From assembly GCA_945871105.1 (NCBI GenBank), contig CAMBUO010000001.1:59120-123119 (forward strand): DNA of 64,000 nt. The letters run 5' to 3'. The stretch is from an uncultured Clostridia bacterium. GTDB lineage: Bacteria; Bacillota_I; Bacilli_A; RF39; UBA660. Position 1 is the stretch's first letter. Each line of letters opens with the position of its first letter. This document shows positions 3,212 through 22,215 of the stretch, in pieces. The position numbers and the translations under genes are program-made. The notes beneath the pieces are model-generated. The model was not told the DNA's origin and ran no database searches. It worked only from the letters and a program-made list of their open reading frames with translations.

Positions 3212-3380
3212 TTTTAACTCCTTTTAATTTAATTTATTATAATGTTTATCCTTATTGTTTTGTATATTTCTTTTTATTTCTATTTTTATCTGATACATCA
3301 AAATATTTTGTGTTATCTCTTTATTTTGCTTCAAGTGTTATACAACTAATTTCTAATAAAATAAAAGATAATTTTTTGTC

Positions 3381-3409
3381 TTGAATTTATAAATATTTAT
3401 TAGTATAAT
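3381..3409 (+). promoter_or_regulatory. Sigma-A type promoter (TTGAAT-17-TATAAT) for the small peptide gene
   Basis: TTGAAT at 3381-3386, 17-nt spacer, TATAAT at 3404-3409. Confidence 0.5.
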
Positions 3410-3424
3410 GATAGTGAGGTGTAT

Positions 3425-3511
3425 ATGAAAAAGAAAACAACTAAAATAATTACTATTGGTTTATTAATAATTATGGTAGCTGCATTTATTTGTGGACTAA
3501 TTTATATGTAA
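3425..3511 (+). CDS. Small hydrophobic peptide (28 aa, MKKKTTKIITIGLLIIMVAAFICGLIYM), single predicted TM helix
   Basis: ATG at 3425 lies 4 nt after GTGAGGTG (3414-3421). The peptide has a basic N-terminus followed by a hydrophobic stretch, ends at TAA 3509-3511, and is followed directly by a hairpin terminator. The gene is not in the ORF track because it is too short. Confidence 0.4.
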   Translation: MKKKTTKIITIGLLIIMVAAFICGLIYM

Positions 3512-3513
3512 AA

Positions 3514-3540
3514 AAACTTCGTTTGAAGTTTTTTTATTTG
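3514..3540. terminator. Bidirectional intrinsic terminator shared by the small peptide gene (+) and mscL (-)
   Basis: AAACTTC-GTT-GAAGTTT hairpin flanked by A-run and T-run. The mscL stop codon at 3534-3536 abuts it. Confidence 0.6.
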
Positions 3541-3914
3541 TCTTTTAATAAATCTCTTATTTCTTCTAGTAGTTTAATATCATCTGGTTTTTTAGGTTCT
3601 TCTTTCTTTTCTTCTTTCTTCTTACTTAATTTATTGAATATTTTTACAACAATGAAAATAGTTAGAGCAACAATTAGAAAATCAACAATATTTTGGATAA
3701 ATGATCCAACCATAATACTGGCATTTCCAACAGTTACCTTAATTCCTTCAAAGTGAATTCCTCCGATAATCACACCAACAAGTGGCATGATAATATCATC
3801 AACTAAACTTGAGACAATTTTATTAAAAGCATTTCCAATGACAACAGCAATAGCTAAATCTAAAACATTTCCTTTAGCAATAAATTTTTTAAATTCTTCT
3901 AAAAATTTTTTCAT
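3534..3914 (-). CDS. mscL: Large-conductance mechanosensitive channel
   Basis: [47 protein letters not shown] is the canonical MscL N-terminus, and the protein has two TM helices. Confidence 0.9.
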
Positions 3915-4598: not shown

Positions 4599-5510
4599 CT
4601 AAATTTGCATAATAAATGTCAAAAAAGATATATTTTGTAAACACTTATTACTTTTAATATCTTCATCTAAAATAGCTAAATTATATAGCATATTTAATAA
4701 TTCTTTTTGGGAATAATTATAACCTTTATTTCTAGCTAATTTAACAGGATATTCATGAACTTCTAATAAATTACTAATTTCAGAATCACTTAATCGATTT
4801 AAAACTTTAACATTATAAATTAATCTAATTTGATTGGCTAACATAATCATAATTTGAATAATCTCTGTTCCACTACTAAGAAAATGTTCATATAATTCAT
4901 AAACTTTTTTCTTATCTTTTTTAACAATAGAATCAATTAAATCAAAGATACTCGATTCAATATTTCTATTACTTACTAAATCAATATCTTCTTTCGTAAT
5001 AATCTTTTTATCTACTTTATATAATTTTAATTTTTCTAACTCTGATTCAATTATATTATAGTTTTGGCCTACTTTATTTAAAAAGTATTGAATGGTACTT
5101 TTATTCATTTTATAATTTTCTAAATTATTTTCTATAAAAGTACTATAATCTATATTTTTAATTGTAATTATTTTAAATACTTTTTTTATTTCTGTTACTA
5201 GTTTTAAACGATTATTTAATTTATTAACTACTAGTATTAAGATATTATCACTAGGGTTATTAATGTATTTTAATAATTTATCTTCTTTAAAATCTGTTTT
5301 TTCGATTAAGAATAAAGGATTATAACCAATAATAACTTTTTGTTTTAAAAACATATCATAAGTATCTAAATCTTCAATTATTTTATTAAATTCTATTTCA
5401 TTTAAATCATATTTAATTAATTCATAGTTAGTTAATTTATTTATTATTTTATCGATTTCTTTTTGAATTAAAACAGGATTTTCTCCTTCGATTAATATTA
5501 ATTTATCCAT
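4599..5510 (-). CDS. holA: DNA polymerase III delta subunit
   Basis: 303 aa with holA-like N-terminal domain organisation. It overlaps the alaS stop by 8 nt. Confidence 0.55.
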
Positions 5511-8190
5511 TTAAGATACCATTTTTAACTGTTTCAAGAGATTCATCTAATTTATTAATATCTTTTCCAGCACCTCTAGCAAATTTATTAGATCCTCCCC
5601 CATTACCTCCTGTTAATTTAGTTATATCTTTAATAATTTTACCAGCATCAATTAAAGAATTACTACGAGCTATAAAGTTGATATTTTCTTGATTTATATT
5701 AGCAAATAAGATAAACATATTCGGATATTTATTAACTAAAGTATCAGCTATATTTTTTAAAGTATCATTATCTTCATTATCAATTTTCATGATTAAAAGA
5801 TTTAAGTCTTTTTCTTTTAAAATATTCTTTTCATATTTTGATAAATCATTAATACTTAATTCACTCTTTAATTTTAAGTATTTCTTTTCTAATTCATGAA
5901 CTGAGTTAGCTACATAATTATCTTTATTTTTTAAATTTATAATATCTTGGTAAGAACTAGGTTTAATATTATCAAGAGTTAAATCAAGGGTTAAAGTTAT
6001 TCCTTCTTCTTTAGCTTTTTTTATTAATTCTTTTGCTTTCATGATATTTTTAATAATATTTTGATTATAAGGATTAGCTATGGTTAATAAATTTTCTTCT
6101 ACTTTATCTTTGGTAGCTCCAGTTATTCTAAATGTGTTACTTCCTTTATTTTCTAAAGAAATAATAGCAAATTTTTTGATATCTTTCGTATTTTTAACAT
6201 GACAGCCTCCACATAATTCTTTGGATTTACCAATTTCTACTAATCGTACTTTATCTTTGTATTTATCAGCAAATAAAGCCATTACTTCATTTGTATCAAT
6301 ATCACTTAAATTTTTAATAGTTGTTTCTCTTTGGTAACTATTTTTAATATAATCATTAACAAAGTTTTCTACTTTTACTAAAGTTTCATCAGTTATTTTT
6401 CCATGATAATTAAAATCAAATCTTAAATAAGTATCTGTTACTTTTGAACCTACTTGATAGATATCTTTAGCAATTAAGGTTTGTAGAGCAAGTTGTAAGA
6501 TATGAACAGTTGAATGATTGGCTTCTATGTTTAATCTTCTTTCTTTATCAACTATTGATTCTACTTTATCATCTAATTTAATAGTTCCATGTAATACTTT
6601 AATTTTATGAAGATGTTGACCATTTGGAGCTTTAAAAACATCTAAAACTTTCGCTTTAAAATTATCACCTTGAATGATTCCAGTATCACTTATCTCTCCA
6701 CCTGATTCAGCATAGAAACAAGTTTTATCAAGAACAACTATTCCTTCTTCATCTAAACTATCAACAAATTTATCATTTTTAATAAGAGCAATTACTTCAC
6801 CTTTTTGTTCATATACTTCATAAATAAATTCTGATTCATCTTTATAATTTAAAAGCATTTCATTTTGACTTTTAAAAGATTCTATTTGTTTTTGGTTATT
6901 CTTCGACAATTCTTTTTGTTCTTGCATACATTTTAAGAATTCTTCTTTATCTGTGGTGTAACCTTTTTCAGCAAGTATTTCTAAAGTAAGTTCAAAAGGA
7001 AAACCATAAGTATCATATAATTTAAATACATCATTTCCTTTAATTTTATTATCAAGTGATTCATCCATTAATTCTAGTAATTTCTTTTCTCCTTTATCAA
7101 GCGTTTTTAAAAATAAATCTTCTTCTTGCATGATAAGAGCTTTCACATGAGCTTGTTTATTTAATAGATAAGGATAAACATCTTTCATATTTAAAACTAC
7201 TGAATCAACTAGTTTATACATAAATTTTCCTTTTAAGCCTAGTTTTTTACCATAACGAACACTTCTTCTTAAAAGTCGTCTTAAAATATAACCACGACCA
7301 ACATTATCAAAATTAGCTCCATCAGCAAGGGCAAAAGTTAAAGAACGAACATGATCAGCAATAACTTTATAAGGCATAGAACCATCATATAAAGTTCCAC
7401 TTAATTCTTCAACCATCTTAATAGTTGGCATGAATAAGTCGGTATCAAAGTTACTATCAGCATCTTGAAAAATACAAGCCCATCTTTCAAGTCCTGCCCC
7501 AGTATCAATATTTTTACTTGGTAATTCTTGATAGTCTTTTCGATCAATACCTTCTTTAGAGTTAAATTGACTAAAAACATTATTCCAAATTTCTACATAA
7601 CGTTCATTATCTTCACCTTTTTGAAAATGTTCTAAGGCCTTGCCATCAAAGTCATATTTTTCCCCACGATCAAAGAAAATTTCCGTATCAGGACCACATG
7701 GACCTTCCCCTATTTCCCAGAAATTATCTTCAAGTTTAGTAATATGATCTTCTGGTACGCCTAAACTTACCCATTTATTATAAGTATCTTTATCTTCAGG
7801 ATAAACCGTAAAATAAAGTTTATCAATTGGAATATTAAACCATTTAGGACTTGTTAAAAGTTCAAAAGCAAATTCAATCGCTTCATTTTTAAAATAATCA
7901 CCAATGGAAAAGTTTCCCATCATTTCGAAGAAAGTATGATGACGACGGGTTACTCCAACATTTTCAATATCATTAGTACGAATACACTTTTGTATATTTG
8001 TAACTCTTCTATTATCGGGAACAACTGATCCATCAAAATATTTTTTTAAAGGTGTAACTCCAGCATTAATCCAAAGCAAAGAATCATCATCTTTCGGTAT
8101 TAATGGTGCACTTTCTACTACTTTATGACCTTTACTTTGAAAGAAGTCAAGCCACATTTTTCTAATTTCTAAACTAGTCATTTTTTTCAT
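5503..8190 (-). CDS. alaS: Alanine--tRNA ligase
   Basis: Class II aaRS motifs (FFQSKGHKVVESAPLIP…DDSLLWINAGV), C-terminal editing and C-Ala domains, about 895 aa. The first M in the track is a TTG, so the start was taken at ATG 8188-8190. Confidence 0.95.
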   Translation of the reverse strand: MKKMTSLEIRKMWLDFFQSKGHKVVESAPLIPKDDDSLLWINAGVTPLKKYFDGSVVPDNRRVTNIQKCIRTNDIENVGVTRRHHTFFEMMGNFSIGDYFKNEAIEFAFELLTSPKWFNIPIDKLYFTVYPEDKDTYNKWVSLGVPEDHITKLEDNFWEIGEGPCGPDTEIFFDRGEKYDFDGKALEHFQKGEDNERYVEIWNNVFSQFNSKEGIDRKDYQELPSKNIDTGAGLERWACIFQDADSNFDTDLFMPTIKMVEELSGTLYDGSMPYKVIADHVRSLTFALADGANFDNVGRGYILRRLLRRSVRYGKKLGLKGKFMYKLVDSVVLNMKDVYPYLLNKQAHVKALIMQEEDLFLKTLDKGEKKLLELMDESLDNKIKGNDVFKLYDTYGFPFELTLEILAEKGYTTDKEEFLKCMQEQKELSKNNQKQIESFKSQNEMLLNYKDESEFIYEVYEQKGEVIALIKNDKFVDSLDEEGIVVLDKTCFYAESGGEISDTGIIQGDNFKAKVLDVFKAPNGQHLHKIKVLHGTIKLDDKVESIVDKERRLNIEANHSTVHILQLALQTLIAKDIYQVGSKVTDTYLRFDFNYHGKITDETLVKVENFVNDYIKNSYQRETTIKNLSDIDTNEVMALFADKYKDKVRLVEIGKSKELCGGCHVKNTKDIKKFAIISLENKGSNTFRITGATKDKVEENLLTIANPYNQNIIKNIMKAKELIKKAKEEGITLTLDLTLDNIKPSSYQDIINLKNKDNYVANSVHELEKKYLKLKSELSINDLSKYEKNILKEKDLNLLIMKIDNEDNDTLKNIADTLVNKYPNMFILFANINQENINFIARSNSLIDAGKIIKDITKLTGGNGGGSNKFARGAGKDINKLDESLETVKNGILNG

Positions 8191-11926: not shown

Positions 11927-14518
11927 TTAAACACTTCTTTCTTTATTTAATTTCTTTAAAATAATTTTTCTTAAAGCATCAACTGGCCAAACTGATAAAG
12001 CCATAATTAAAATAATAAAGAATTCTTTAGCTGTTAAACCATAAGTTCTAAATAAATCTCCTCCAAAATAAATTAAATATATTTGGACTATTATAATAAA
12101 ACCGATTACTAATAAATAAATTTTATTTTTTAGAATATTAGCAAATATATTAATTCGATAAGTCCTTGCATTAAAAGAATTGAATATACCAATAAAAATA
12201 AACATAGCAAAATAAGCTGTCATTAAGTATTTATTATTATTACCAATGCGAAAGTAATGATGAATAATCGGAAGTTTTAAAAACAGAATACATAAAGTAC
12301 TAGAATACAGGGCTGTTAAAATTATTTCGTTATACATATAAGAATTGATAATTGGTTCATTCATTTTTTTAGGTGGCTCATTCATATATTCAAGTAAAGC
12401 TGGTTCAAAAGAGAAAGCTAAAGCTGCAAAGGTATCCATAATCATATTAAGCCATAACATTTGGACAATGGTAATTGGCGAAGTTACCCCGATAAAGGGA
12501 CCAACAATTGATAAAATAAGAGCGGTGGCATTAACACTTAATTGATAAATAATAAACTTACGAATACTTTTAAAAATAGTTCTGCCATACAAAATAGCTT
12601 TCGAAATAGATAAAATATTATTATCTAAAATAACAATATCCGAAGCTTCTTTACTAACTTCCGTTCCTGTTCCCATAGCAAAACCAACATTAGCTTTTTT
12701 TAAAGCCGGAGCATCATTTACACCATCACCTGTCATACCAACAATTAAATTCTTACTTTGAAATAATTTAACTAACCTACTCTTATCCATAGGTAAAGCC
12801 CTAGCTACTACTTTTAAATTATGTAATTTACTAATTAATTCCTCATCACTTAATTGATTTAACTCTAAACTAGTTAAAACTAAATCATTGTTATCTTGAT
12901 AAATTCCAACTTCTTTAGCAATAGAAAGAGCCGTTTCTTTAGCGTCCCCTGTTATCATCACAACTTGAATACCAGCTTCCTTAATTAAAGAAACACCTCT
13001 TATAGCTTCTTCTCTTAAATCATCTTTCAATAATATTAATCCTTGAAAAACTAAGTTATTTAAACTAGCCATTCCTTTTTTATAAGCTAGTAATAAAACT
13101 CTAACCCCATTTTTAGTAACCTCTTGAATTTTATTAATTATATTATTTTTATTTGTTAAAGGTAATTCTTCTCTACCATTAAAATACTTAGTACAAAAAG
13201 GAAGTAAAACTTCACTAGCCCCTTTAAAATAAGTTATTAACATATTATCGTTTAAAGTAACTGAACTATATTTATCTTGACTATTAAATTGTTTTTTCTT
13301 AAAAATATTTTTCTTAACTTTATTTTCTCCTACGTATTTTAAAATTGCTTGATCAGTTATATTACCTCCAACAACTTTTAAATCATCAGTAAAATTACTA
13401 TCATTATTATAATATAAAGATTCATAATACAAAGAAGATTTTTTTATTTTTTGAAGATTTAAAGAATCTAAATTACCATTTAAAACTTGAACTACTTCTA
13501 ATTTTCCTTTCGTTAAAGTACCTGTTTTATCAGTTAATAAAACATTTATATTTCCAGCTGTTTCTATTCCAACTAATTTTCTAACTAAAACATTACTTTT
13601 TAACATTCTTTTCATATTACTAGATAAAACTAAAGTAATCATCATAGGTAATCCTTCAGGAACGGCAACAACAATGATAGTAACACTTAATGTTAAAGCA
13701 TAAATTAAATAATCAGCCATTTGATGAAAATTAGTTAAAGTTTCTTTAATTAACACTAAGTCATAGTTATTTTCCATCACAATTTTCGAATATAAATAAG
13801 CAATAGTTACTAAAATTGCTCCTATATAACCTAATTTACTAATTATCTTAGCTAAATCAGTTAAACGTGATTTTAAAGGACTAATAGGTTCTTTTTCGCC
13901 TAATTCAAGAGCTAACTTTCCATATAAAGTATCAATTCCAACTTTATTAACTTCCATTTCTCCTAGCCCTGAATAAATAGTTGTTCCTCGGTATAATTGA
14001 TAATTATTTTTATTACTTCCTTTTTGATAACTTTCTTTTTTACTTTCTTTGCTCTCTCCATTTAAAATTGATTCATTAACACTTAAATTACCTTTTAAAA
14101 GGATACCATCAGCTGGTATCTTATCACCTGTTTCTAAAATGACAATATCGCCAACTACTACTTCTGAAGTATCAATTTCTTGTATTTTTCCGTCCCTTCG
14201 AACCCGACTTTTAATCTTCGAAGCTTCTTCTTGTAATTTAATAAAGGCTTTCTCCGAACCATATTCTGAGATAGTTGAAATAAAAGTTGCTAATAAAATA
14301 GCAATAAAAATACCAATTGTTTCATAAAAATCAAAATCTTTGAATAAAAAAACTGTTTTTACAGCTAAAGCAATTAATAAAATTTTAATAATCGGATCAC
14401 CTAAAGATTCTAATAATAATCCTAAAAATTTTTTTCTCTTTTGAATATTAATTTCATTAGTTCCATATTTTTTACGATTATTAATAACTTCTTCTTTATT
14501 AAGACCTTTATTTACCAT
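11927..14518 (-). CDS. P-type Ca2+/cation-translocating ATPase (P2-type)
   Basis: 863 aa with DKTGTLTKG, TGDGVNDAPALKKA and GDxxxxA motifs plus N- and C-terminal TM bundles. Confidence 0.85.
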   Translation of the reverse strand: MVNKGLNKEEVINNRKKYGTNEINIQKRKKFLGLLLESLGDPIIKILLIALAVKTVFLFKDFDFYETIGIFIAILLATFISTISEYGSEKAFIKLQEEASKIKSRVRRDGKIQEIDTSEVVVGDIVILETGDKIPADGILLKGNLSVNESILNGESKESKKESYQKGSNKNNYQLYRGTTIYSGLGEMEVNKVGIDTLYGKLALELGEKEPISPLKSRLTDLAKIISKLGYIGAILVTIAYLYSKIVMENNYDLVLIKETLTNFHQMADYLIYALTLSVTIIVVAVPEGLPMMITLVLSSNMKRMLKSNVLVRKLVGIETAGNINVLLTDKTGTLTKGKLEVVQVLNGNLDSLNLQKIKKSSLYYESLYYNNDSNFTDDLKVVGGNITDQAILKYVGENKVKKNIFKKKQFNSQDKYSSVTLNDNMLITYFKGASEVLLPFCTKYFNGREELPLTNKNNIINKIQEVTKNGVRVLLLAYKKGMASLNNLVFQGLILLKDDLREEAIRGVSLIKEAGIQVVMITGDAKETALSIAKEVGIYQDNNDLVLTSLELNQLSDEELISKLHNLKVVARALPMDKSRLVKLFQSKNLIVGMTGDGVNDAPALKKANVGFAMGTGTEVSKEASDIVILDNNILSISKAILYGRTIFKSIRKFIIYQLSVNATALILSIVGPFIGVTSPITIVQMLWLNMIMDTFAALAFSFEPALLEYMNEPPKKMNEPIINSYMYNEIILTALYSSTLCILFLKLPIIHHYFRIGNNNKYLMTAYFAMFIFIGIFNSFNARTYRINIFANILKNKIYLLVIGFIIIVQIYLIYFGGDLFRTYGLTAKEFFIILIMALSVWPVDALRKIILKKLNKERSV

Positions 14519-14571: not shown

Positions 14572-15237
14572 TTACGAATGCATTTTATTAATAAGTGGTA
14601 ATTCTTTAGCTTTGCCATCACAGACATTTTTTATTCCCATAAAAGATAAAATAAGAGATAGAAAGAAGAATACTGTTTGACATATACTTACAAGCCAACT
14701 AACTCTCCAACTTAAAATTAAACCTAAAAACCAAAGAATACCCCCAACAATGATTTCAGCTATCAAAAGGCTTATACCTTGCTTAGCATGAAATATAACA
14801 TATTTATTCTTTTTTTCACTTAAATAAGGTATAAGAACAAGTATACCTAGATAAGATAAAATTCCTAATGCTTTTCCTTTTTTAATATCTTCTTTAGAAT
14901 ATTCATTACTAGTATCTTTTACATCCTTAAAAGCACTCTCTAATTTATCTTGAAAACCCATATTTTTATCTGGAAAATTATTATTATTGTTATTTGTAGA
15001 ATTATTATTATTTTGATAATTATTCATTTGATTACTATTAGAATAATAATTATTATTTGTTGAATTATTATTACTTTGATAATTATTCATTTGATTACTA
15101 TTAGAATAATTATTATTGTTTTTATTGTTATAATTACTATTTTGATAGTTATTATTAATCTGATTATTATCATGGTAATTATTATAATAACTATTAGATT
15201 GATTATTGTTTTGATTATTATTATTTGAATAATTCAT
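14572..15237 (-). CDS. Membrane protein with Asn/Gln-rich low-complexity N-terminal region and a C-terminal DUF4870-like 2-TM domain
   Basis: About 120 aa of N/Q/Y/S-rich sequence, including a tandemly duplicated 21-aa unit, followed by ALGILSYLGILVLIPYL…HAKQGISLLIA. A hairpin terminator lies at 14535-14560. Confidence 0.5.
   Translation of the reverse strand: MNYSNNNNQNNNQSNSYYNNYHDNNQINNNYQNSNYNNKNNNNYSNSNQMNNYQSNNNSTNNNYYSNSNQMNNYQNNNNSTNNNNNNFPDKNMGFQDKLESAFKDVKDTSNEYSKEDIKKGKALGILSYLGILVLIPYLSEKKNKYVIFHAKQGISLLIAEIIVGGILWFLGLILSWRVSWLVSICQTVFFFLSLILSFMGIKNVCDGKAKELPLINKMHS
15001..15120. repeat. Tandem in-frame 63-nt and 60-nt duplication inside the Asn-rich gene
   Basis: Two consecutive near-identical units (attattattatTttgataattattcatttgattactattagaataat…) encoding YSNSNQMNNYQ(S/N)NNNSTNNN. 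Confidence 0.7.
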
Positions 15238-15508
15238 ATTTTAGCTCCTTATCTTTACTATATTATCTTATTATATTTTTTGAATATTTTCAATACCTAA
15301 ATTAATTTTTATTATTTATCATTTGATATATTAAAAACAGTAAAAATTTTCTAGTTATAGTTTTTATTTATTTTTTTCAAATACTTACATCAATAATTTC
15401 AAATTTGATGTAATTTATTAAATTACAGAAGTATCAATTGAAAAATTATTATTGTCACTATTAATCTCTAATAAAACCTAATATTTTTTTAATAAACTAC
15501 CTATTTTT

Positions 15509-15630
15509 TAAAATAAATCTCCAGTTATCATACCCTATAAGATTTTCATAAATATATTATAGTAATTATCTTTTTTTAAATCATCAGCCCCTTGATAAGT
15601 TTTTATCAATTTATTCGTATATTAATATTG
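15509..15630 (-). pseudogene. Degraded partial copy of the 3' portion of the dacA-like carboxypeptidase gene (direct repeat of 21040-21122 plus 21541-21585)
   Basis: 15509-15585 matches 21040-21118 at about 95 percent, with a TAG in place of the AAA codon. 15583-15630 matches the internal KTG-motif region 21541-21588. The roughly 415 bp between the two segments in the intact gene is absent from this copy. Confidence 0.6.
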
Positions 15631-15847
15631 TTATAGTAAAAATGGTATCACTTATTGATGAAATGATACTATGAAAAATACAAATTATATATCATATTTT
15701 AATTTTTATTTATAAAAAGATTTAAAAATATGTTGAAACGCTGTCTTTATTGTTACTTTTAACAACTTTTTTAATTTGATTATTATAATCAATATGGAAT
15801 TATTGATAAATCATTTTGCTAATAAAATATTAATCTATACTATTTTC

Positions 15848-16642
15848 TTATCTTTCTAAATTCATTATATTTGTACTAAATAATTCACTTAACATTTTAT
15901 ATTCATTACTTTCTTCTAACTTTTCCTCATAATATTCATTATTTTTCCAGTAGCATTTTAAAACATAGCCTTTTTCAAAATTTCTACCATTGCCTTTACC
16001 GGAAATTATTTTATATTTGTTGTCGACAATTTCAATCGCCGAACAATTAGATAACATAAGACCTAACATTTTATTTTCTTTTAGTTGACTTTTAGTAGAC
16101 TCATATCTGCCCTCTTCATCACAATGTGGCGTAACGAAAACATCAAACCAATTTAAACATTCTACAGATTCAAATCGCATTTCTTTTTTATCTGAATTAC
16201 AAGAATTAAACCAACAAACCGCACCTGCTGAAATACCACATATCACTTTTCCACTATGCCATGCTTCTCTTAATATAATATCAAATCCCGATTTTTTCCA
16301 AAGTTTAATCATAGCATCAGTATCACCGCCACCTTCATAGATAATATCTGCCCAATCTACTGCTTCTTTTACAAGTTTCTTATTATATAAATCACTAGCT
16401 TTTAAATATTTACAGTTACATCCATATTTGTCTCTATATATTTTCTCCATAGTCTCATAATAACTATCTTGTATTTCATCTGAAAAACACATTGCATGAG
16501 CAAGAAATAAATAATTAGGAGTCTTTTTATTAGTCAATCTAATAATTTCTTTATCCATCATTTCTGTCTCATACATAGTTTGACTTCCGTCATCAAGAAA
16601 TCTTCCGTTTTCTCCACCGCCAATTGCTACTATTTTTTTCAT
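15848..16642 (-). CDS. Peptidase S51 family (dipeptidase E / cyanophycinase-like) protein
   Basis: IVAIGGGENG…EGGGDTDAMIKLW…ICGISAGAV fits the S51 architecture. Its own promoter TTGTAA-17-TATAAT lies in 16643-16760 on the minus strand. Confidence 0.6.
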   Translation of the reverse strand: MKKIVAIGGGENGRFLDDGSQTMYETEMMDKEIIRLTNKKTPNYLFLAHAMCFSDEIQDSYYETMEKIYRDKYGCNCKYLKASDLYNKKLVKEAVDWADIIYEGGGDTDAMIKLWKKSGFDIILREAWHSGKVICGISAGAVCWFNSCNSDKKEMRFESVECLNWFDVFVTPHCDEEGRYESTKSQLKENKMLGLMLSNCSAIEIVDNKYKIISGKGNGRNFEKGYVLKCYWKNNEYYEEKLEESNEYKMLSELFSTNIMNLER

Positions 16643-16856
16643 TATATAAACTTTTTACCTCTTTCTTATATTATTGATATAAAAGATAATTATAGTTTTT
16701 CAATAACTTTATTACAACTTAAGTTTTTGACATTTCGTTCTTGGAAATGCACTAACATCCCTTATATTACTCATTCCTGTAGTATACATTATCAATCTTT
16801 CAAATCCTATACTAACACATAACTTTCTCAATCAACATACACTTGCAAAATAAATA

Positions 16857-18833
16857 TTAATAATTAGTAATCAAAACCTCAATAGTCTTTGTAATATTTC
16901 CTTTTTGCTTATGATAATTAGAATTATTATAATCACATGTTATATAATGTATAGTATAATTATGTTCTTTAATCCATGTTTGCAGTATTTCATGTGTTGC
17001 TCCTTTATGTTCTATAACATTCGATAAAGCAAATTTAATACCTTTAGAATCTAGGATAGTTAAATAGTTAAGCAAATCTATTTCATCTTGTTTGGTCCAA
17101 CCACCATTTTCATTATAACTAGCTGTTCCTAAAAAATATGGTGGATCACAATATACTAATGTATTTTCATTCGTTTCTATCGCAAACTCTCTAAAATCAG
17201 AATTAATAAATTCTATATTTTTAGTTTTTAATTTAGTAATAAAATTTTTTAAATTTTTTCTAAGTGAATTGTTTAAGTCTCTTTTACCAACAGGCATATT
17301 AAATTCACCATTACTATTAAATCTTATTTGATTATTAAATCCGTATATAACTAATGTTAAAAATAAAAAGTCTTTTTCTATTGAATCATTTTTCATATTA
17401 TTATAATCATTTCTGAGTTCTACATATTTATTTTTGTTATAAGATCCTAATCCTTTATCACTAGTACAATTATACATTTCGTATCCATTTAATAACGAAT
17501 TGCTTAATTCATATTTATCTATAATCTTTTCTAGTTTATCTATAATGTAACCATCTTCGTACTTTTTAAATAGATTCATAACTCTAATTATTTCTTTTTG
17601 TTTATCTACACAAACAATTTTTTTAGCATTTACATTTACACCAACGTTTGAGCCACCAGAAAATAAATCTACAAATAAATCCAACTCTTTAGGGAAAATA
17701 GGAATTATTTGATTAAGTATTTTATACTTTCCTCCTGTATAATTTAATGGTGATTTTACTATATCATTAGAAACTTTTTCATTAATAGTTTTTGCTTTCA
17801 ATACTTTTCCAACCTTGCATACAAAAAGTCTTTCCTTATGGTTATCAATATGTGTTTTTCCAGTATTAAATTCTTTGAAATCAGTCTCATAAACTTTTAC
17901 TTTACCTTTTTTGCTCAAAGTATTCATAATATCTTCATCAGATATTTTAGCTTGTGATCTGCCTGCACCTTTTTTACCCATATTATTATAAGAAACTATA
18001 ATATATTTGGCATCAATATTTTCAATTAAGTCTTTAAATGCAAGAGGTGCTGAAACTGAACAATATTTGCTCTTAATTCCATTTCGCTCCATTTTTTTTG
18101 CAACACCATGAACTTCACTTTTTTCCCACATTGCTACATTTTCTAATAAGTGATATGCATCAGAATATTGCCTAGAATTATATGGTGGATCAATGTAAAC
18201 AACATCAGCTTTTAAATTTCTTACCAATTCATTTGAATCTTCATTAAAAATTTTATTATTTTTATTATTGGTGTTTGATTTTAAATCAAGCATACATAAT
18301 TCCAACTTTTTATTTAAATCTCCATTTTTCCTATATGCATCATAATGACCAACTGTATTTGCAATTTTATCCATAGCATATAAAAGTGAAGTTACCAAAA
18401 CTGCTCTTTCTCTAATATTTAAATTATTGTTTGTATAATTTTCTTCAATATTTTCTCTAATAAATCCTATTTTTTTACAGTTTTCTTCACTAAAATAAGT
18501 ATTTGAAAAATTTAATGAAAAATAATTATCTCCTAAATCAGTTAGTGAATTATATTTATTAATGTATTCTTTTATTTTATTTTTGTCTATCTTTTCATTT
18601 CCAAACCATGCTAAATAAGAAATATAATTTGATTTTAGCAAATCATTTACATACACCTTTGTTTTTTGGTCATTAAATGAATCTCCAACTATACCTGTTC
18701 CGCCGAATAAATCTAAAAAAGAAGAATATTCTATTTTTTCTTTTTTTATTGTTTCTTTTATAAAATCTATCATTCTAAATTTACTACCAATATATCTTCT
18801 ATTATTAATTGAAATTGTTTTCATTTTTATCAT
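16857..18833 (-). CDS. Tandem double N6-adenine DNA methyltransferase (two Dam/D12-class domains), Type IIS modification enzyme
   Basis: Two complete MTase modules, each with an FxGxG-type SAM motif (LFGGTGIVG, LFSGGSNVG) and a DPPY motif (VVYIDPPYNSRQY, LVYCDPPYFLGTASY). This architecture matches M.FokI, M.MlyI and M.BstNBI. Confidence 0.8.
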   Translation of the reverse strand: MIKMKTISINNRRYIGSKFRMIDFIKETIKKEKIEYSSFLDLFGGTGIVGDSFNDQKTKVYVNDLLKSNYISYLAWFGNEKIDKNKIKEYINKYNSLTDLGDNYFSLNFSNTYFSEENCKKIGFIRENIEENYTNNNLNIRERAVLVTSLLYAMDKIANTVGHYDAYRKNGDLNKKLELCMLDLKSNTNNKNNKIFNEDSNELVRNLKADVVYIDPPYNSRQYSDAYHLLENVAMWEKSEVHGVAKKMERNGIKSKYCSVSAPLAFKDLIENIDAKYIIVSYNNMGKKGAGRSQAKISDEDIMNTLSKKGKVKVYETDFKEFNTGKTHIDNHKERLFVCKVGKVLKAKTINEKVSNDIVKSPLNYTGGKYKILNQIIPIFPKELDLFVDLFSGGSNVGVNVNAKKIVCVDKQKEIIRVMNLFKKYEDGYIIDKLEKIIDKYELSNSLLNGYEMYNCTSDKGLGSYNKNKYVELRNDYNNMKNDSIEKDFLFLTLVIYGFNNQIRFNSNGEFNMPVGKRDLNNSLRKNLKNFITKLKTKNIEFINSDFREFAIETNENTLVYCDPPYFLGTASYNENGGWTKQDEIDLLNYLTILDSKGIKFALSNVIEHKGATHEILQTWIKEHNYTIHYITCDYNNSNYHKQKGNITKTIEVLITNY

Positions 18834-18878
18834 CCATTTCCATTTTAGGCATCACACACCATATATAAATTATACCAT

Positions 18879-18903
18879 AAAAATAGATAATTGTAACAAT
18901 TAT
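18879..18903. repeat. Perfect 12+1+12 palindrome between the endonuclease stop and the methyltransferase start
   Basis: ATAGATAATTGT-A-ACAATTATCTAT. On the minus strand it is followed by TTTTATGGTATAAT, which reads as a T-run plus an extended -10. Confidence 0.6.
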
Positions 18904-20874
18904 CTATATTTTTTCTAAAATTTCTTTTTCAAACCATACTGGATCTGGTTCCGATGACTTATAGGCCTTATCAAACCAAGAATATATATAATCATACTTT
19001 ACATTATTAATAAGCAACTTCTTTAAAATATCTATGTTAATAGGTATGATTTTAAGTCCGTTTATAAATTCACCGTTTCCTTTTGGATAACAATATGTTT
19101 TTCTATTTCTAAAGTCCATTATAATTCTTTCTTCTAATATTGGAGCTACAAATAAGGCATAGTCATTTTCATTATTTGTTAGTTTTATATTTTCTCCTAA
19201 ATGTCTTGAAACAGGTTCCATTTCCATAGATCTTTGACTTGTTGATTCTGAAAGAGTTGCCTCTATTAACAAATCATGTTTAGGATAACTATCTTCCTCA
19301 TATTTATATACAATATCAGCCATACCACCACCAGCATGAGTCTTTGGAAGTAAATCAGCATCTAAACTCAAATTCATATAGTCTAATATATTTCCTTTTT
19401 TATTACTAATTCTATACCAAGCAATTCCTAATACATATTCAAAAATAGTTGGAACTGTGGCATTATCAGTAACATAATCATTTACTATCTCATCATTTCT
19501 ATCTTTAATATTATCTAATAGCATTAAAATTTTATCATTAGGAAACTTCTCATCAATTAATTTGTTAAATGCTTTTAATTTTTCATTTTCAACATAACTA
19601 TTAATTGTATTTATTGTTAAATTCGTTCCTAAACTACTATTAATATTTTTAATAACATCTTCAATGTTTAAAGAATAGTTAGGAGAAATTTTTTCAAGGG
19701 ATACGTTGTTATAAAATATTTCTTTATAATTATCTTCATCTAATAATTTCTCATCAAGTAAGTCATCTACAATTCCCTCAAAATAATATTTTGGTAACAT
19801 ATCAAGTTCAATTTTATTACCTTCAAACTTAATAATATCTGTTAAAGAAAAATATCTTTTATTTAAATCAAAATATTCTTTTAGATTTACTTTCCACTTA
19901 AACAAATGTAAATTAGTAAAAAACTTTTGCTTGAAATCTATAATATTTTTTACTGTCGAAATATCAAGATTTCTAAATTTCTTATCAAATTCTTCATCTA
20001 AACTATTAACTCTATAACCGAAAAATAAGTATTCAACCCAAAGTGGCCTTGTATTTCCAGATATATCTTGACAATAATTATATAATTCTTTATATTTTTC
20101 TAATCTTTCCTCGAAAGTATTATACCTTAAATGAAAAACCAAATCTACTAAAGCATGATATACATTATTGTAATTTCTATCATAAGCTCTACTTTTTCTA
20201 TTAATTCCGATTTTTTCAAAAGTTTCTTCAGTAATAGGATAATCTTGCCTAAAAATATTCCATGCTTCTAAGTAATTTTTCATTTCAAATATTTTCATTT
20301 TAATTATTTCATTGATATCTAATCCCATTCTATTTGCTTTAATATTTTCCACCATTTTTTTAACATCATACTTATTTTTGCATAATGGCAATAAATATGT
20401 AAATTCTTCATAAGAAAGATAATCTAATTTTTCAATCATATATACTAGTGCAATAAATGGTCTTATTTTTATATCACCATCAACTATTTGAAGTTTCAAC
20501 ATTTGTAACAAATAGTAATAACTATCTTCTGACACAAAGAAAATATTATCTTTTGTCATTTGTTTATATAATAAATTTTCTATATTATTTCCAACAGCAG
20601 TTAATCTTCTGTCATCTGTTATAACACCAATATTAACTAATCCTGAGGTTTTTTCTCTTGCATCTTTATCTGGTCTTAAGGCATCACCATATATAAAGTC
20701 ATTTTCTTTTAAGTAATTATAATATTTTTTTTGAGTATTAGAATTCCATTGTGAATTAGGATTTAGTTTCCAAAATTCTTTTAATAATTGTAACTGTCTT
20801 TCAATCTTATAATTCAATTGACTTGTTCTAAAACTGGTAGTACCAATAGACCAACTATAACTTTTAAAAGCCAT
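18904..20874 (-). CDS. Type IIS restriction endonuclease / nicking endonuclease of the AlwI (PleI/MlyI/N.BstNBI) family
   Basis: The C-terminal half (…LLPKTHAGGGMADIVYKYEEDSYPKHDLLIEATLSESTSQRSMEMEPVSRHLG…YALFVAPILEE…IIPINIDILKKLL) resembles the catalytic region of N.BstNBI/AlwI-family enzymes as recalled from memory. The protein is 656 aa and sits next to a double-domain methyltransferase. Confidence 0.6.
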   Translation of the reverse strand: MAFKSYSWSIGTTSFRTSQLNYKIERQLQLLKEFWKLNPNSQWNSNTQKKYYNYLKENDFIYGDALRPDKDAREKTSGLVNIGVITDDRRLTAVGNNIENLLYKQMTKDNIFFVSEDSYYYLLQMLKLQIVDGDIKIRPFIALVYMIEKLDYLSYEEFTYLLPLCKNKYDVKKMVENIKANRMGLDINEIIKMKIFEMKNYLEAWNIFRQDYPITEETFEKIGINRKSRAYDRNYNNVYHALVDLVFHLRYNTFEERLEKYKELYNYCQDISGNTRPLWVEYLFFGYRVNSLDEEFDKKFRNLDISTVKNIIDFKQKFFTNLHLFKWKVNLKEYFDLNKRYFSLTDIIKFEGNKIELDMLPKYYFEGIVDDLLDEKLLDEDNYKEIFYNNVSLEKISPNYSLNIEDVIKNINSSLGTNLTINTINSYVENEKLKAFNKLIDEKFPNDKILMLLDNIKDRNDEIVNDYVTDNATVPTIFEYVLGIAWYRISNKKGNILDYMNLSLDADLLPKTHAGGGMADIVYKYEEDSYPKHDLLIEATLSESTSQRSMEMEPVSRHLGENIKLTNNENDYALFVAPILEERIIMDFRNRKTYCYPKGNGEFINGLKIIPINIDILKKLLINNVKYDYIYSWFDKAYKSSEPDPVWFEKEILEKI

Positions 20875-21045
20875 AATCTATCTACTCCCTTTATATCTAT
20901 TTTAACATAAAACTTAGCATTTTTTAAATTTAAAACTGATTTTCTTTGATTTTTTTATTTTTTTTAAATTGTCTTCTTACATCACAGATGATATTTAAAA
21001 TTAAACTACTATATTTGCTAAGAAAAGTCAATAATATCTATTTTT

Positions 21046-22215
21046 TTAAAATAAATCGCCGGTTATCATACCCTTTAAGATTTTCATAAATATATTAAAG
21101 TAATTATCTTTTTTTAAATCCTCGGAAACGGTTATTTTTACTTCTTCAATCATATTACCAAGATCATCTTTCACAATAAGTTTACCAATTACATCTCCTT
21201 TATAAATAGGTAGCTTTAAAGTATTTAAAACAACATTTGATTTATATTCTTTCTTTTTTTCACTTTGTTTTTTTAAAACTGTTACATCTTGATTAGCTAT
21301 AATTTTAACTTTTTCTAAATTGGCTTTATCTAAAGAAATTGTTCCTAGTTCTTCACCTTTTTGTTTAATAGTTGTAACTTCATATAAATTAAAACCATAG
21401 TCTAATAATTCTGCTGTTTCTTTATTACGAACTTTTCCTTCTTTTTCGCCTAAAACAATAGCTAATAGTCGCATATTGTTGCGTTTAGCCGTTACGGCCA
21501 TACAATATCCAGCATTATCAGTCATTCCCGTTTTTAAGCCATCAGCCCCTTGATAAGTTTTAATTAATTTATTTGTATTTACAAGCCAGAATTGCCTATC
21601 GGTTCCTTTTCTTAAATAATCTTCATAGATACTAGTATAATTAAATATTTCTTCATGACTAATTAACTCTTTGGCAATTATTGCCATATCGTAAGCTGTT
21701 GAATAATGATTTTCTTCATCTAAACCGGTTGGATTAACAAAATTGGTATTTTTTAAACCTAATTCTTTTGCTTTTTCATTCATCATTTTAACAAAATCAG
21801 CTTCCGTTCCGCCAATTCTTTCAGCCATAGCTACTATTCCATCATTAGCACTAGCCATCATAATACCCTTAATTAAATCTAAAACCGTTATTTCTTCTCC
21901 TTCTTCTAGCCAAATCTGTGATCCTCCCATATTACTAGCATTTTTACTTGCTTTAATTTTTTCATCTAATCGAATATTACCATCTTCTAAAGCTTCCATT
22001 ACTAAAATCATTCCCATCATCTTGGTCATGGAAGCAACACTTACTTTTTCATGAATATTTTTTTCATAAATAATCGTTCCTGTTGAAACTTCCATTAATA
22101 AACCACTTTTAGCATTAGGAAGTAAAGTATCAGCTTTAACTACTTTTGTATTTAAAAATATTAAACTTAAACAAAGAAAAGTTATTATTCCTTTTTTTAA
22201 TAATTTCATATTCAC
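21046..22215 (-). CDS. dacA: Serine-type D-alanyl-D-alanine carboxypeptidase (PBP5/DacA-like)
   Basis: SxxK (VASMTKMM), SxN (ASANDG) and KTG (LKTGMTD) motifs, plus an N-terminal signal peptide. Confidence 0.85.
   Translation of the reverse strand: MNMKLLKKGIITFLCLSLIFLNTKVVKADTLLPNAKSGLLMEVSTGTIIYEKNIHEKVSVASMTKMMGMILVMEALEDGNIRLDEKIKASKNASNMGGSQIWLEEGEEITVLDLIKGIMMASANDGIVAMAERIGGTEADFVKMMNEKAKELGLKNTNFVNPTGLDEENHYSTAYDMAIIAKELISHEEIFNYTSIYEDYLRKGTDRQFWLVNTNKLIKTYQGADGLKTGMTDNAGYCMAVTAKRNNMRLLAIVLGEKEGKVRNKETAELLDYGFNLYEVTTIKQKGEELGTISLDKANLEKVKIIANQDVTVLKKQSEKKKEYKSNVVLNTLKLPIYKGDVIGKLIVKDDLGNMIEEVKITVSEDLKKDNYFNIFMKILKGMITGDLF

Follow-up and report, generated by a model that had tools for sequence, protein, structure and literature searches.

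The 64-kb stretch of DNA analysed here (64,000 nucleotides of contig CAMBUO010000001.1, hereafter the window) comes from an uncultured, AT-rich member of the gut Bacilli. Next to an intact D-alanyl-D-alanine carboxypeptidase gene (dac, in the window dacA) it carries a restriction-modification (R-M) system, a peptidase gene and a short, broken copy of the end of dacA itself. We consider it probable that the whole region from dacA to an Asn-rich open reading frame (ORF) represents the layered remains of elements that a large serine recombinase (LSR) inserted within dacA, between codons 212 and 213. At the level of sequence, the comparisons described below establish the insertion site with its surviving attR and show where the cargo came from. 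They also show that attL and the recombinase are gone, that an extra dac end arose locally, that the region is built in layers and that the orphaned gene end decayed later.

An earlier note on this DNA had read the region as an R-M island bracketed by direct repeats and inserted as one block next to dacA by duplication of the end of that gene. The observation is confirmed; the interpretation proves to be partly right, and wrong on the mechanism, the unity of the island and the insertion site.

A predicted recombination site within dac

All genes of the region lie on the minus strand and follow one another, in the direction of transcription, as rpsP, a KH-domain gene, a rhomboid gene, dac, an AlwI-family restriction endonuclease gene, a double D12 methyltransferase gene, a peptidase S51 gene, the Asn-rich ORF and a P-type ATPase gene (11927-14518). 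Pfam bears out the products annotated earlier (Peptidase_S11 with PBP5_C, RE_AlwI, two MethyltransfD12 and Peptidase_S51). The intact dac (21046-22209, minus strand) encodes 387 residues from its ATG, with Peptidase_S11 (1.7e-76) and PBP5_C matches. In an exact-protein look-up this product is on record from two short contigs of the same arrangement, and the GTG-start version of dac and the Asn-rich ORF gave no record. The dac of the nearest species shares 80-83% amino-acid identity with that of the window.

The flanking repeats are real, both pieces of the short copy matching dacA far above chance and in the same orientation. The outer piece (15504-15585, minus strand), comprising the last ~26 codons and the stop, agrees with 21042-21123 at 77 of 82 positions (94%) without a gap. 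When one 1-nucleotide gap is allowed, local BLAST extends the match to 15491-15585 against 21030-21123 (96 columns, 90.6%, E 3e-33), which takes in ~16 nucleotides beyond the stop (21030-21045, minus strand; counterpart in the gapped alignment 15491-15503). The inner piece (15573-15609, minus strand), which spans codons 213 to ~225 and the KTG region, agrees at 33 of 37 positions past the predicted crossover and, with the crossover flank included, at 43 of 48 (15573-15620 against 21531-21578, 90%, E 3e-14); the KTG-region match of the earlier note thus holds, with its partner shifted from 21541-21588. The two offsets, 5538 and 5958, show that 420 nucleotides (~415 had been estimated) are missing from the copy, in frame. 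The endpoints of this deletion are two imperfect 13-nucleotide direct repeats, GATGGCTTAAAAA and GAGGATTTAAAAA, which suggests loss by slippage, and on the coding (minus) strand the copy carries an in-frame TAG where the intact gene has AAG (Lys), not AAA as first read. Given the 420-nucleotide deletion and the in-frame TAG, the copy is a decayed dac 3' part, as had been proposed.

The inner end of the copy falls at codon 212/213 (NTNK/LIK) and is joined there to a conserved sequence of ~65 nucleotides. For comparison, dac loci were sampled with one genome per species and the proteins of the window were mapped onto them (comparison loci carry handles such as L012). In the simplest relatives, L012 and L014, dac is followed directly by the ATPase gene and a second dac piece is absent; the order predicted earlier for island-free strains, dacA followed directly by the gene at 14572-15237, occurs in no relative seen. 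Elsewhere, 5'-truncated dac pieces start at residue 212-213 (L015, L051, L053 and L060), the residue at which the copy in the window starts, and dac itself is broken at the crossover position, on the attL side in L061, L050 and L127 and on the attR side in L060, L053 and L128. The dac frame of L061 and L050 ends right past ...WLVNTNK, and an LSR of 480-486 residues with Resolvase, Recombinase and Zn_ribbon_recom domains (Pfam) lies ~230-250 nucleotides downstream, the distance between broken dac and LSR being 230-300 nucleotides across L061, L050 and L127. L060, which belongs to the same genome bin as L061, holds element genes, dac from NTNKLIK onward, and the ATPase gene. The element-side sequences at junctions of the type seen in L061, L050 and L060 are mutually inverted (GTTATTGTAAAA ... 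TTTTACAATAAC), as would be expected for the attP of a serine integrase.

In the window, the predicted right end of such an element occupies 15610-15675 (minus strand), just upstream of the copy. It consists of the P arm of attR at 15610-15635 (TATAACAATATTAATATACGAATAAA) and a conserved inverted repeat at 15644-15670, AGTATCA-N13-TGATACC; the arrangement GGTATCA-N13-TGATACC followed by ACTATAGCAATATTCACATACAAATAAA is shared with L015 and L051. A scan of metagenomes with the P-arm pattern retrieved 30 contigs, and the full motif (hairpin plus P arm) is fused to dac codon 213 in 19 of the 30, at dac genes that are quite different in sequence. Thirty junctions, drawn from the scan contigs and from later loci, align over ~65 nucleotides of element end, all at dac codon 213, with window 15599-15635 aligning with the 29 others at that codon. 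In viral contigs the hairpin motif gave five matches, all of them chance and lacking extended similarity. These alignments identify the conserved 65-nucleotide end as the predicted attR arm of elements inserted within dac by an LSR, and dac as their predicted target gene.

The left junction of L127, a predicted attL, reads AATACAAATAAA joined to GTCGTATATAAATAATGCTATAG, its outer part being the inverted partner of the right arm, and together with the attR of L128 it allows a 50-bp attP to be rebuilt (CTATAGCAATATTCATATACTAATAAAGTCGTATATAAATAATGCTATAG, with inverted ends CTATAGCAATATT ... AATAATGCTATAG). From this junction and the rebuilt attP, the crossover can be placed at ~21567/21568 in the gene, within a predicted attB core at 21557-21579 (minus strand; AATACAAATAAATTAATTAAAAC, codons N-T-N-K-L-I-K), and at ~15609/15610 at the copy. 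The right junction of the window retains the P arm joined to the B' arm, that is, an attR. The inner boundary of the copy is therefore the predicted LSR crossover within dacA, with the attR arm attached, and not the trace of an insertion beside the gene.

The conserved element end (window 15644-15700) also holds a promoter-like sequence with an extended -10, TTG-N17-TGGTATCAT, seen in the alignment of the 30 junctions. It points outward across attR and overlaps the inverted repeat; in the window its TG has become TA. If the element were circular, transcription from it would run over attP toward the recombinase gene. The idea of an outward promoter is based solely on conservation in that alignment. 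A generic promoter and terminator scan of 15200-15900 gave no excess over shuffled sequences.

Complete elements and probably stranded cargo

The R-M module of the window recurs in elements that are still complete. L127 and L128, whose overlap is 99.98% identical over 8741 nucleotides, together give a complete element of 11.4 kb. Reading from the host genes, L127 holds the dac 5' part (218 residues), attL, the recombinase (475 residues; L127 6853-8280), a helix-turn-helix gene (HTH_36), a sigma-like gene (Sigma70_r2), the AlwI-type endonuclease (87% amino-acid identity), the double methyltransferase and a KAP NTPase, a defence gene; L128 continues with KAP, attR, the dac 3' part (172 residues) and host genes. 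L126, which counts as a second relative with the same ends and cargo, has a frameshifted recombinase, the sigma-like gene, endonuclease, methyltransferase, an OLD-family nuclease, attR and the dac 3' part. Across the module (16851-20957, minus strand) the window shares 89.6% nucleotide identity with L126 (3257-7365, 4114 columns), 88.4% with L127 and 84.7% with L123. Moreover, the R-M genes adjoin attR and a dac 3' part in L128, L129, L130, L132 and L134, with a third gene that varies in the last four. Such comparisons mark the R-M module as cargo of dac-splitting serine-recombinase elements. The lack of an integrase does not mean that none was involved; complete relatives with the same module carry a recombinase, and it is the recombinase side that the window has lost.

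The endonuclease (18904-20874, minus strand; 656 residues, full length) matches RE_AlwI over residues 81-620 (Pfam, 7e-68) and REase_II in PADLOC, and its homologues measure 655-658 residues at 60-99% identity. The fused N6-adenine methyltransferase (16857-18833, minus strand; 658 residues) has two MethyltransfD12 stretches (1.6e-60), matches MTase_II in PADLOC (8e-200) and scores 171 bits in its second half on an NCBIfam Dam-family model with a cut-off of 115. It is adjacent to the endonuclease and co-oriented, and its two domains are what the modification of both strands of an asymmetric site calls for. The pair looks like an intact AlwI-family Type IIS system and presumably still restricts foreign DNA. 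In a count of recognition-site avoidance confined to the window, GGATC occurs 58 times against 32 expected and GAGTC 6 times against 10.

The plasmid and phage collections hold only distant relatives: the R-M reaches ~65% nucleotide identity there, and no integrase of sequenced phages exceeds 41% identity to the recombinase. No description of dac as a serine-recombinase target was found in the papers searched.

Some further loci deserve mention. In L133 (6620-8404) the P arm past the R-M and OLD genes leads not into dac but into other element-type genes (a DUF4143 ATPase and an HTH gene); this looks like two stacked element remnants from which the intervening dac piece was lost. A more distant R-M copy (74% endonuclease identity) lies in L136 (7621-9904), at the end of a phage-like region, in another defence cluster with a reverse transcriptase (RVT_1), a metallophosphatase and an Abi_2 gene as neighbours. 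In four related species, L007, L009 (3907-7984), L013 and L019, the P-type ATPase gene beside dac is split at codon 288 by an insert of ~4 kb that encodes its own LSR, of 488 residues and ~27% identical to the dac-element enzyme; the ATPase gene of the window (11927-14518) is intact.

In the window itself, the recombinase and the element backbone proteins (HTH and sigma-like) have no significant match anywhere in the 64 kb, and none of the ten ORFs tested between 11927 and 24672 matches a recombinase family in Pfam, in agreement with the earlier report of neither integrase nor transposase between the copies. The P' arm, or attL, likewise has no real match in the window, the two low-stringency matches being a chance one and the attR P arm on the other strand. 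The gene is unsplit, dac running on across the attB core at 21557-21579. Held against a complete, excisable LSR element, the window lacks recombinase and attL and possesses attR and complete relatives. With attL and the recombinase gone, its element would no longer be excisable.

The same layout, with an intact dac, cargo, attR and a second dac 3' part and with the recombinase missing, is also found in L015, L123 and L138. The two copies in L015 are 95.5% identical over 533 nucleotides (3319-3851 against 5290-5822), and the stranded cargo of 1.4 kb includes a CptIN-family type III toxin (L015 4139-5214; NCBIfam 1e-44, above the cut-off). In L123, which has UvrD and RecX host genes upstream and a cargo of window-type R-M with an OLD nuclease, the copies are 99% identical over 581 nucleotides (6131-6711 against 12250-12830), including at least 36 nucleotides past the stop. 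The dac of L123 is only ~44% identical to that of the window, yet its own two copies are nearly the same, which indicates that the extra 3' part was made locally and was not carried in with the cargo. The mismatches between copies in L015 and L123 cluster in the first ~120 nucleotides past the crossover, the next 375-460 nucleotides being identical, a pattern that points to a mosaic origin or to gene conversion between the two at a later time. The last ~48 nucleotides of the two L015 copies are strongly diverged. Addictive modules form part of the stranded cargo in three of these four lineages, two having R-M genes and one a type III toxin-antitoxin; the cargo of L138 is a 127-residue ORF.

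Layers of different age

The dac of the sister lineage L138 shares 97.9% nucleotide identity with that of the window, and this lineage has the S51 gene in the same place, at 96% amino-acid identity and with flanks of 96-98% nucleotide identity. The order in L138 is dac, a short downstream stub, the 127-residue ORF, an attR (hairpin and P arm) with 63 nucleotides of dac, S51, a partial second attR, the Asn-rich ORF and the ATPase gene. The R-M genes are absent, a state found only there, and in the window the R-M block sits where L138 has the 127-residue ORF and the first attR. Since S51, attR and the dac remnant are common to the window and this R-M-less lineage, they belong to an older layer of both. 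The island thus consists of at least two layers, the older of which (an asnS remnant, S51, attR and the dac remnant) is shared with L138 and has the R-M module upstream of it. Of the earlier claim that everything between the copies was one foreign insertion, the foreignness of the R-M genes stands, given their absence from L138, and the unity of the insertion does not. Within the species itself, no empty site was found; every contig with an identical S51 carries the full island.

The S51 gene (15848-16642, minus strand; Peptidase_S51, 8.5e-33) has homologues that form a smooth series across the clade, as for an ordinary chromosomal gene. Directly upstream of it lies an asnS 3' remnant, the last ~33 codons of that gene (16715-16810, minus strand), which matches the asparaginyl-tRNA synthetase (AsnRS) of L139 at 72% over 32 residues in tblastn (E 3e-10). 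In contigs L087-L096, which belong to the species of the window, this remnant aligns with the C-terminus of AsnRS at 88% over 33 residues (E 2e-15), and a full asnS was not found in the window. At a different locus, in L139, asnS stands directly upstream of S51, and the full gene there is one of two in tandem. As S51 is preceded in the window by an asnS remnant and the two genes are neighbours at that other locus, S51 is a translocated piece of chromosome, a passenger and not part of the R-M module.

The R-M module is flanked by two joints. Between the dac downstream stub and the module lie 72 nucleotides (20958-21029, minus strand), where homology to L126 starts only at 20957; they have no match outside the species, and they lack the terminator that the sigma-like gene has in the element. 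The other joint, of 46 nucleotides (16811-16856, minus strand), runs from the methyltransferase stop to the asnS remnant, the homology to L126 ending at 16851 and that to the L139 asnS starting at 16810. A scan of viral contigs with the 46-nucleotide joint, taken as a possible attR arm of an asnS-targeting element, gave nothing. The dac and asnS remnants of L138 meet at a 10-nucleotide microhomology, ACTGGAATGA. This lineage had at first suggested that a third dac remnant lies upstream of S51, a reading that was rejected: the sequence is the asnS 3' end, and the shared ACTGGAATGA is only the microhomology at the deletion joint of L138.

The Asn-rich ORF (14572-15237, minus strand; 221 residues of low complexity) flanks the array and lies outside it; it is conserved in L138 and has no Pfam match. 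It is built of degenerate 63-nucleotide and shorter periodic repeats (families D1, D2 and D4), is missing from the interval between dac and the ATPase gene in most related species, and shows a weak MamF_MmsF match in the precomputed annotation of other contigs.

Proposed restoration of dacA, rival readings and known systems

The history that we favour would run as follows. An element would once have split dacA at this locus, and a locally derived copy of the last ~540 nucleotides of dac, with a few tens of nucleotides downstream, would later have come to lie right behind the 5' part. The recombinase side of the element would have been lost, leaving the cargo, attR and the displaced original dac 3' part stranded downstream, where the last would have decayed through the 420-nucleotide slippage deletion and the TAG. 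Three routes might lead there. The cargo, attR and the dac 3' part with its stub may have been duplicated in tandem before attL recombined with the nearer attR in a normal excision. Alternatively, an aberrant excision may have carried off the dac 3' part, in the manner of specialised transduction, and the product may then have entered an intact dac by Campbell-type homologous insertion. Or the gene may have been repaired with DNA of an element-free sibling through one homologous and one illegitimate joint. Sequence alone cannot separate these routes, and the restoration of dacA is itself what we infer. The regenerated attB could be hit again, which would explain the stacking of elements. A three-layer ancestor is predicted on this view, in the order dac, the 127-residue ORF, a first attR, a dac 3' part, the R-M genes, the asnS remnant, S51, a second attR and a further dac 3' part.

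Several observations weigh against this history. No contig of the species shows the intermediate, a dac split by an LSR element carrying the R-M genes of the window, and in every one of the species' contigs, at least 22 in number, the arrangement is already complete. The 72- and 46-nucleotide joints that flank the R-M genes match nothing retrieved, and the repair step is a reconstruction. The R-M module of the window has no attR of its own, and a further deletion or allelic replacement must be assumed. Both the recombinase activity and the att sites are predictions, and most comparison contigs are metagenomic, from assemblies that can break or mis-join at repeats. Finally, two loci misfit the simple scheme. 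L109 (13185 nucleotides) holds an intact dac (4852-6003), a Schlafen/AlbA_2 gene, a fragment of the same methyltransferase (residues 424-658, 94%), a KAP NTPase and attR, followed by a dac fragment whose nucleotide sequence is unrelated to that of its intact dac. The GC content falls from ~40% to ~22% along the contig, which might reflect either DNA transfer between hosts or a chimera made in assembly. In L107, and likewise in L106, an attR arm (motif at 560) and a heavily deleted dac remnant come before a complete dac (767-1945), the reverse of the order in the window.

Because three of the four lineages have an addictive module in their stranded cargo, it is tempting to speculate, though we hold it rather unlikely, that the layout is a regular outcome. 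Excision would kill cells that lose an addictive cargo, and the survivors would be those rare rearranged cells in which dacA is whole again and the cargo is retained. As each such event regenerates attB, the gene would become a self-renewing landing pad that builds an array of defence genes in the absence of a resident recombinase. This would also give a mechanism for at least some of the known R-M insertions with long target duplication, so far unexplained.

Of the other readings, the one that fares best has the element bring its own replacement dac 3' end, so that the intact gene would be chimeric and no repair step would be required. A well-known precedent is icd of Escherichia coli with e14 and phage 21, where a tyrosine integrase acts, the element supplies a replacement end of 165 bp, and a displaced pseudo 3' end (icdC) lies beside the integrated element. 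The window resembles that case in that its target gene is whole and functional-looking and an orphan 3' copy is found beyond the inserted DNA. In favour of this reading, the arrangement is seen in four lineages, each time with only a short duplicated downstream stretch; the diverged last ~48 nucleotides of the L015 copies look as if they came from separate sources; and dac of the window differs from that of L138 slightly more in the 3' part (4.0%) than in the 5' part (2.4%), a chimerism comparison of one pair that is not decisive. However, the complete elements (L127/L128, L061/L060 and L050) have an ordinary P' arm and a split dac and, unlike e14, carry no dac segment. The new copy is local: that of L123 is 99% identical to its own displaced copy, and the cargo is common to hosts whose dac genes are ~44% identical. 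The recombinase is found in none of the repaired loci. Where a P arm meets a B'-like arm, the site is of the attR type, and serine integrases are not known to recombine such a site with attB. We therefore give an element-borne end little credence.

A single event, in which the block of S51, methyltransferase and endonuclease was inserted whole just downstream of dacA and duplicated the gene end independently of any integrase, is the reading of the earlier note and corresponds to the class of R-M insertions with long target duplication (Nobusato 2000; Furuta 2010). Furuta, Abe and Kobayashi (2010, PMC2853133) define the class operationally: the R and M genes lie inside an insert below 20 kb, the repeat exceeds 30 bp and mobility genes are lacking. 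They state that it was described first in H. pylori, in a study (their reference 37) whose examples were without exception Type IIS. The window conforms in all of this, with a Type IIS system between long target-derived direct repeats whose copies start 5538 nucleotides apart, a repeat of at least 82 nucleotides and no mobility gene. It differs in that the repeat boundary is a predicted site-specific recombination site, an att arm survives and the insert is layered; the class is also meant to be free of any other mobile element. The surviving att arm at the repeat boundary gives the duplication a traceable element origin. Moreover, S51, attR and the dac remnant occur apart from the R-M genes in L138, S51 brings its asnS remnant along, and the same R-M module sits in complete recombinase elements. 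A single insertion is hence highly improbable.

Less credible still is that the short copy is all that is left of a former tandem dac paralogue, with the genes between gathered by unrelated events: tandem or nearby paralogues do exist in more distant Firmicutes (second dac matches in L039, L040, L045, L046, L048, L057 and L063), but these are 33-38% identical to the query protein whereas the copy and its neighbouring gene agree at 90-94%, the copy starts exactly at codon 213 beside the attR arm, and the closest simple relatives have no second copy. A target-site duplication by a transposon was considered and rejected, given a duplication originally of ~540 nucleotides or more, no transposase and no terminal inverted repeats.

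The history that we favour, of stranded LSR elements, places the window among known systems. Gene-intervening elements and prophages moved by LSRs include SPbeta in spsM (SprA), skin in sigK (SpoIVCA), A118 in comK and gin in gerE (described in part in PMC5499854, PMC3556126 and PMC5595907). The dac elements share with them a recombinase of ~475-490 residues with Resolvase, Recombinase and Zn-ribbon domains, a predicted attP of ~50 bp with inverted ends, and an insertion that splits a conserved coding sequence; small non-phage versions, such as gin, exist among the known elements too. They differ in their target, the NTNK/LIK codons just upstream of the KTG motif of dac, in a cargo of defence genes and in a recombinase at most 41% identical to integrases of the phage collection, and the element of the window differs further in being no longer excisable. 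Judged by these features, the complete elements are members of the LSR gene-intervening family with a new target and a defence cargo.

A second parallel, for the stacked remnants that lack a recombinase, is the staphylococcal cassette chromosome (SCC), with weak NCBIfam matches to CcrB and CcrC. SCC elements insert at the 3' end of rlmH (orfX) in staphylococci and include ccr-less pseudo-SCC and composite arrays. Common to both systems are serine recombinases, one chromosomal site that is still usable after insertion, and stacked cassettes, some lacking a recombinase, separated by target-derived repeats. In SCC, however, the core lies in the last few codons and the att site keeps the gene intact, whereas the dac crossover lies 540 nucleotides from the stop and the gene is truly split, and wholeness therefore requires a long duplicated 3' part.

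An island with long repeats and no integrase can in this way be explained by a known class of enzyme acting at exact sites, and for annotation it is a caution that a missing integrase does not mean that none was involved. Codons 212/213 of dac constitute a previously undescribed target, and the candidate attB and attP belong to a diverged lineage of LSRs, enzymes that are sought as tools for genome integration. The window would also offer one concrete route by which long target-derived repeats come to flank a Type IIS R-M system, a pattern catalogued since 2000 with no mechanism attached. In these uncultured gut Bacilli, it appears that conserved genes are commonly split by small recombinase elements with defence cargo, dac being one such gene and the neighbouring P-type ATPase gene, in sister species, another.

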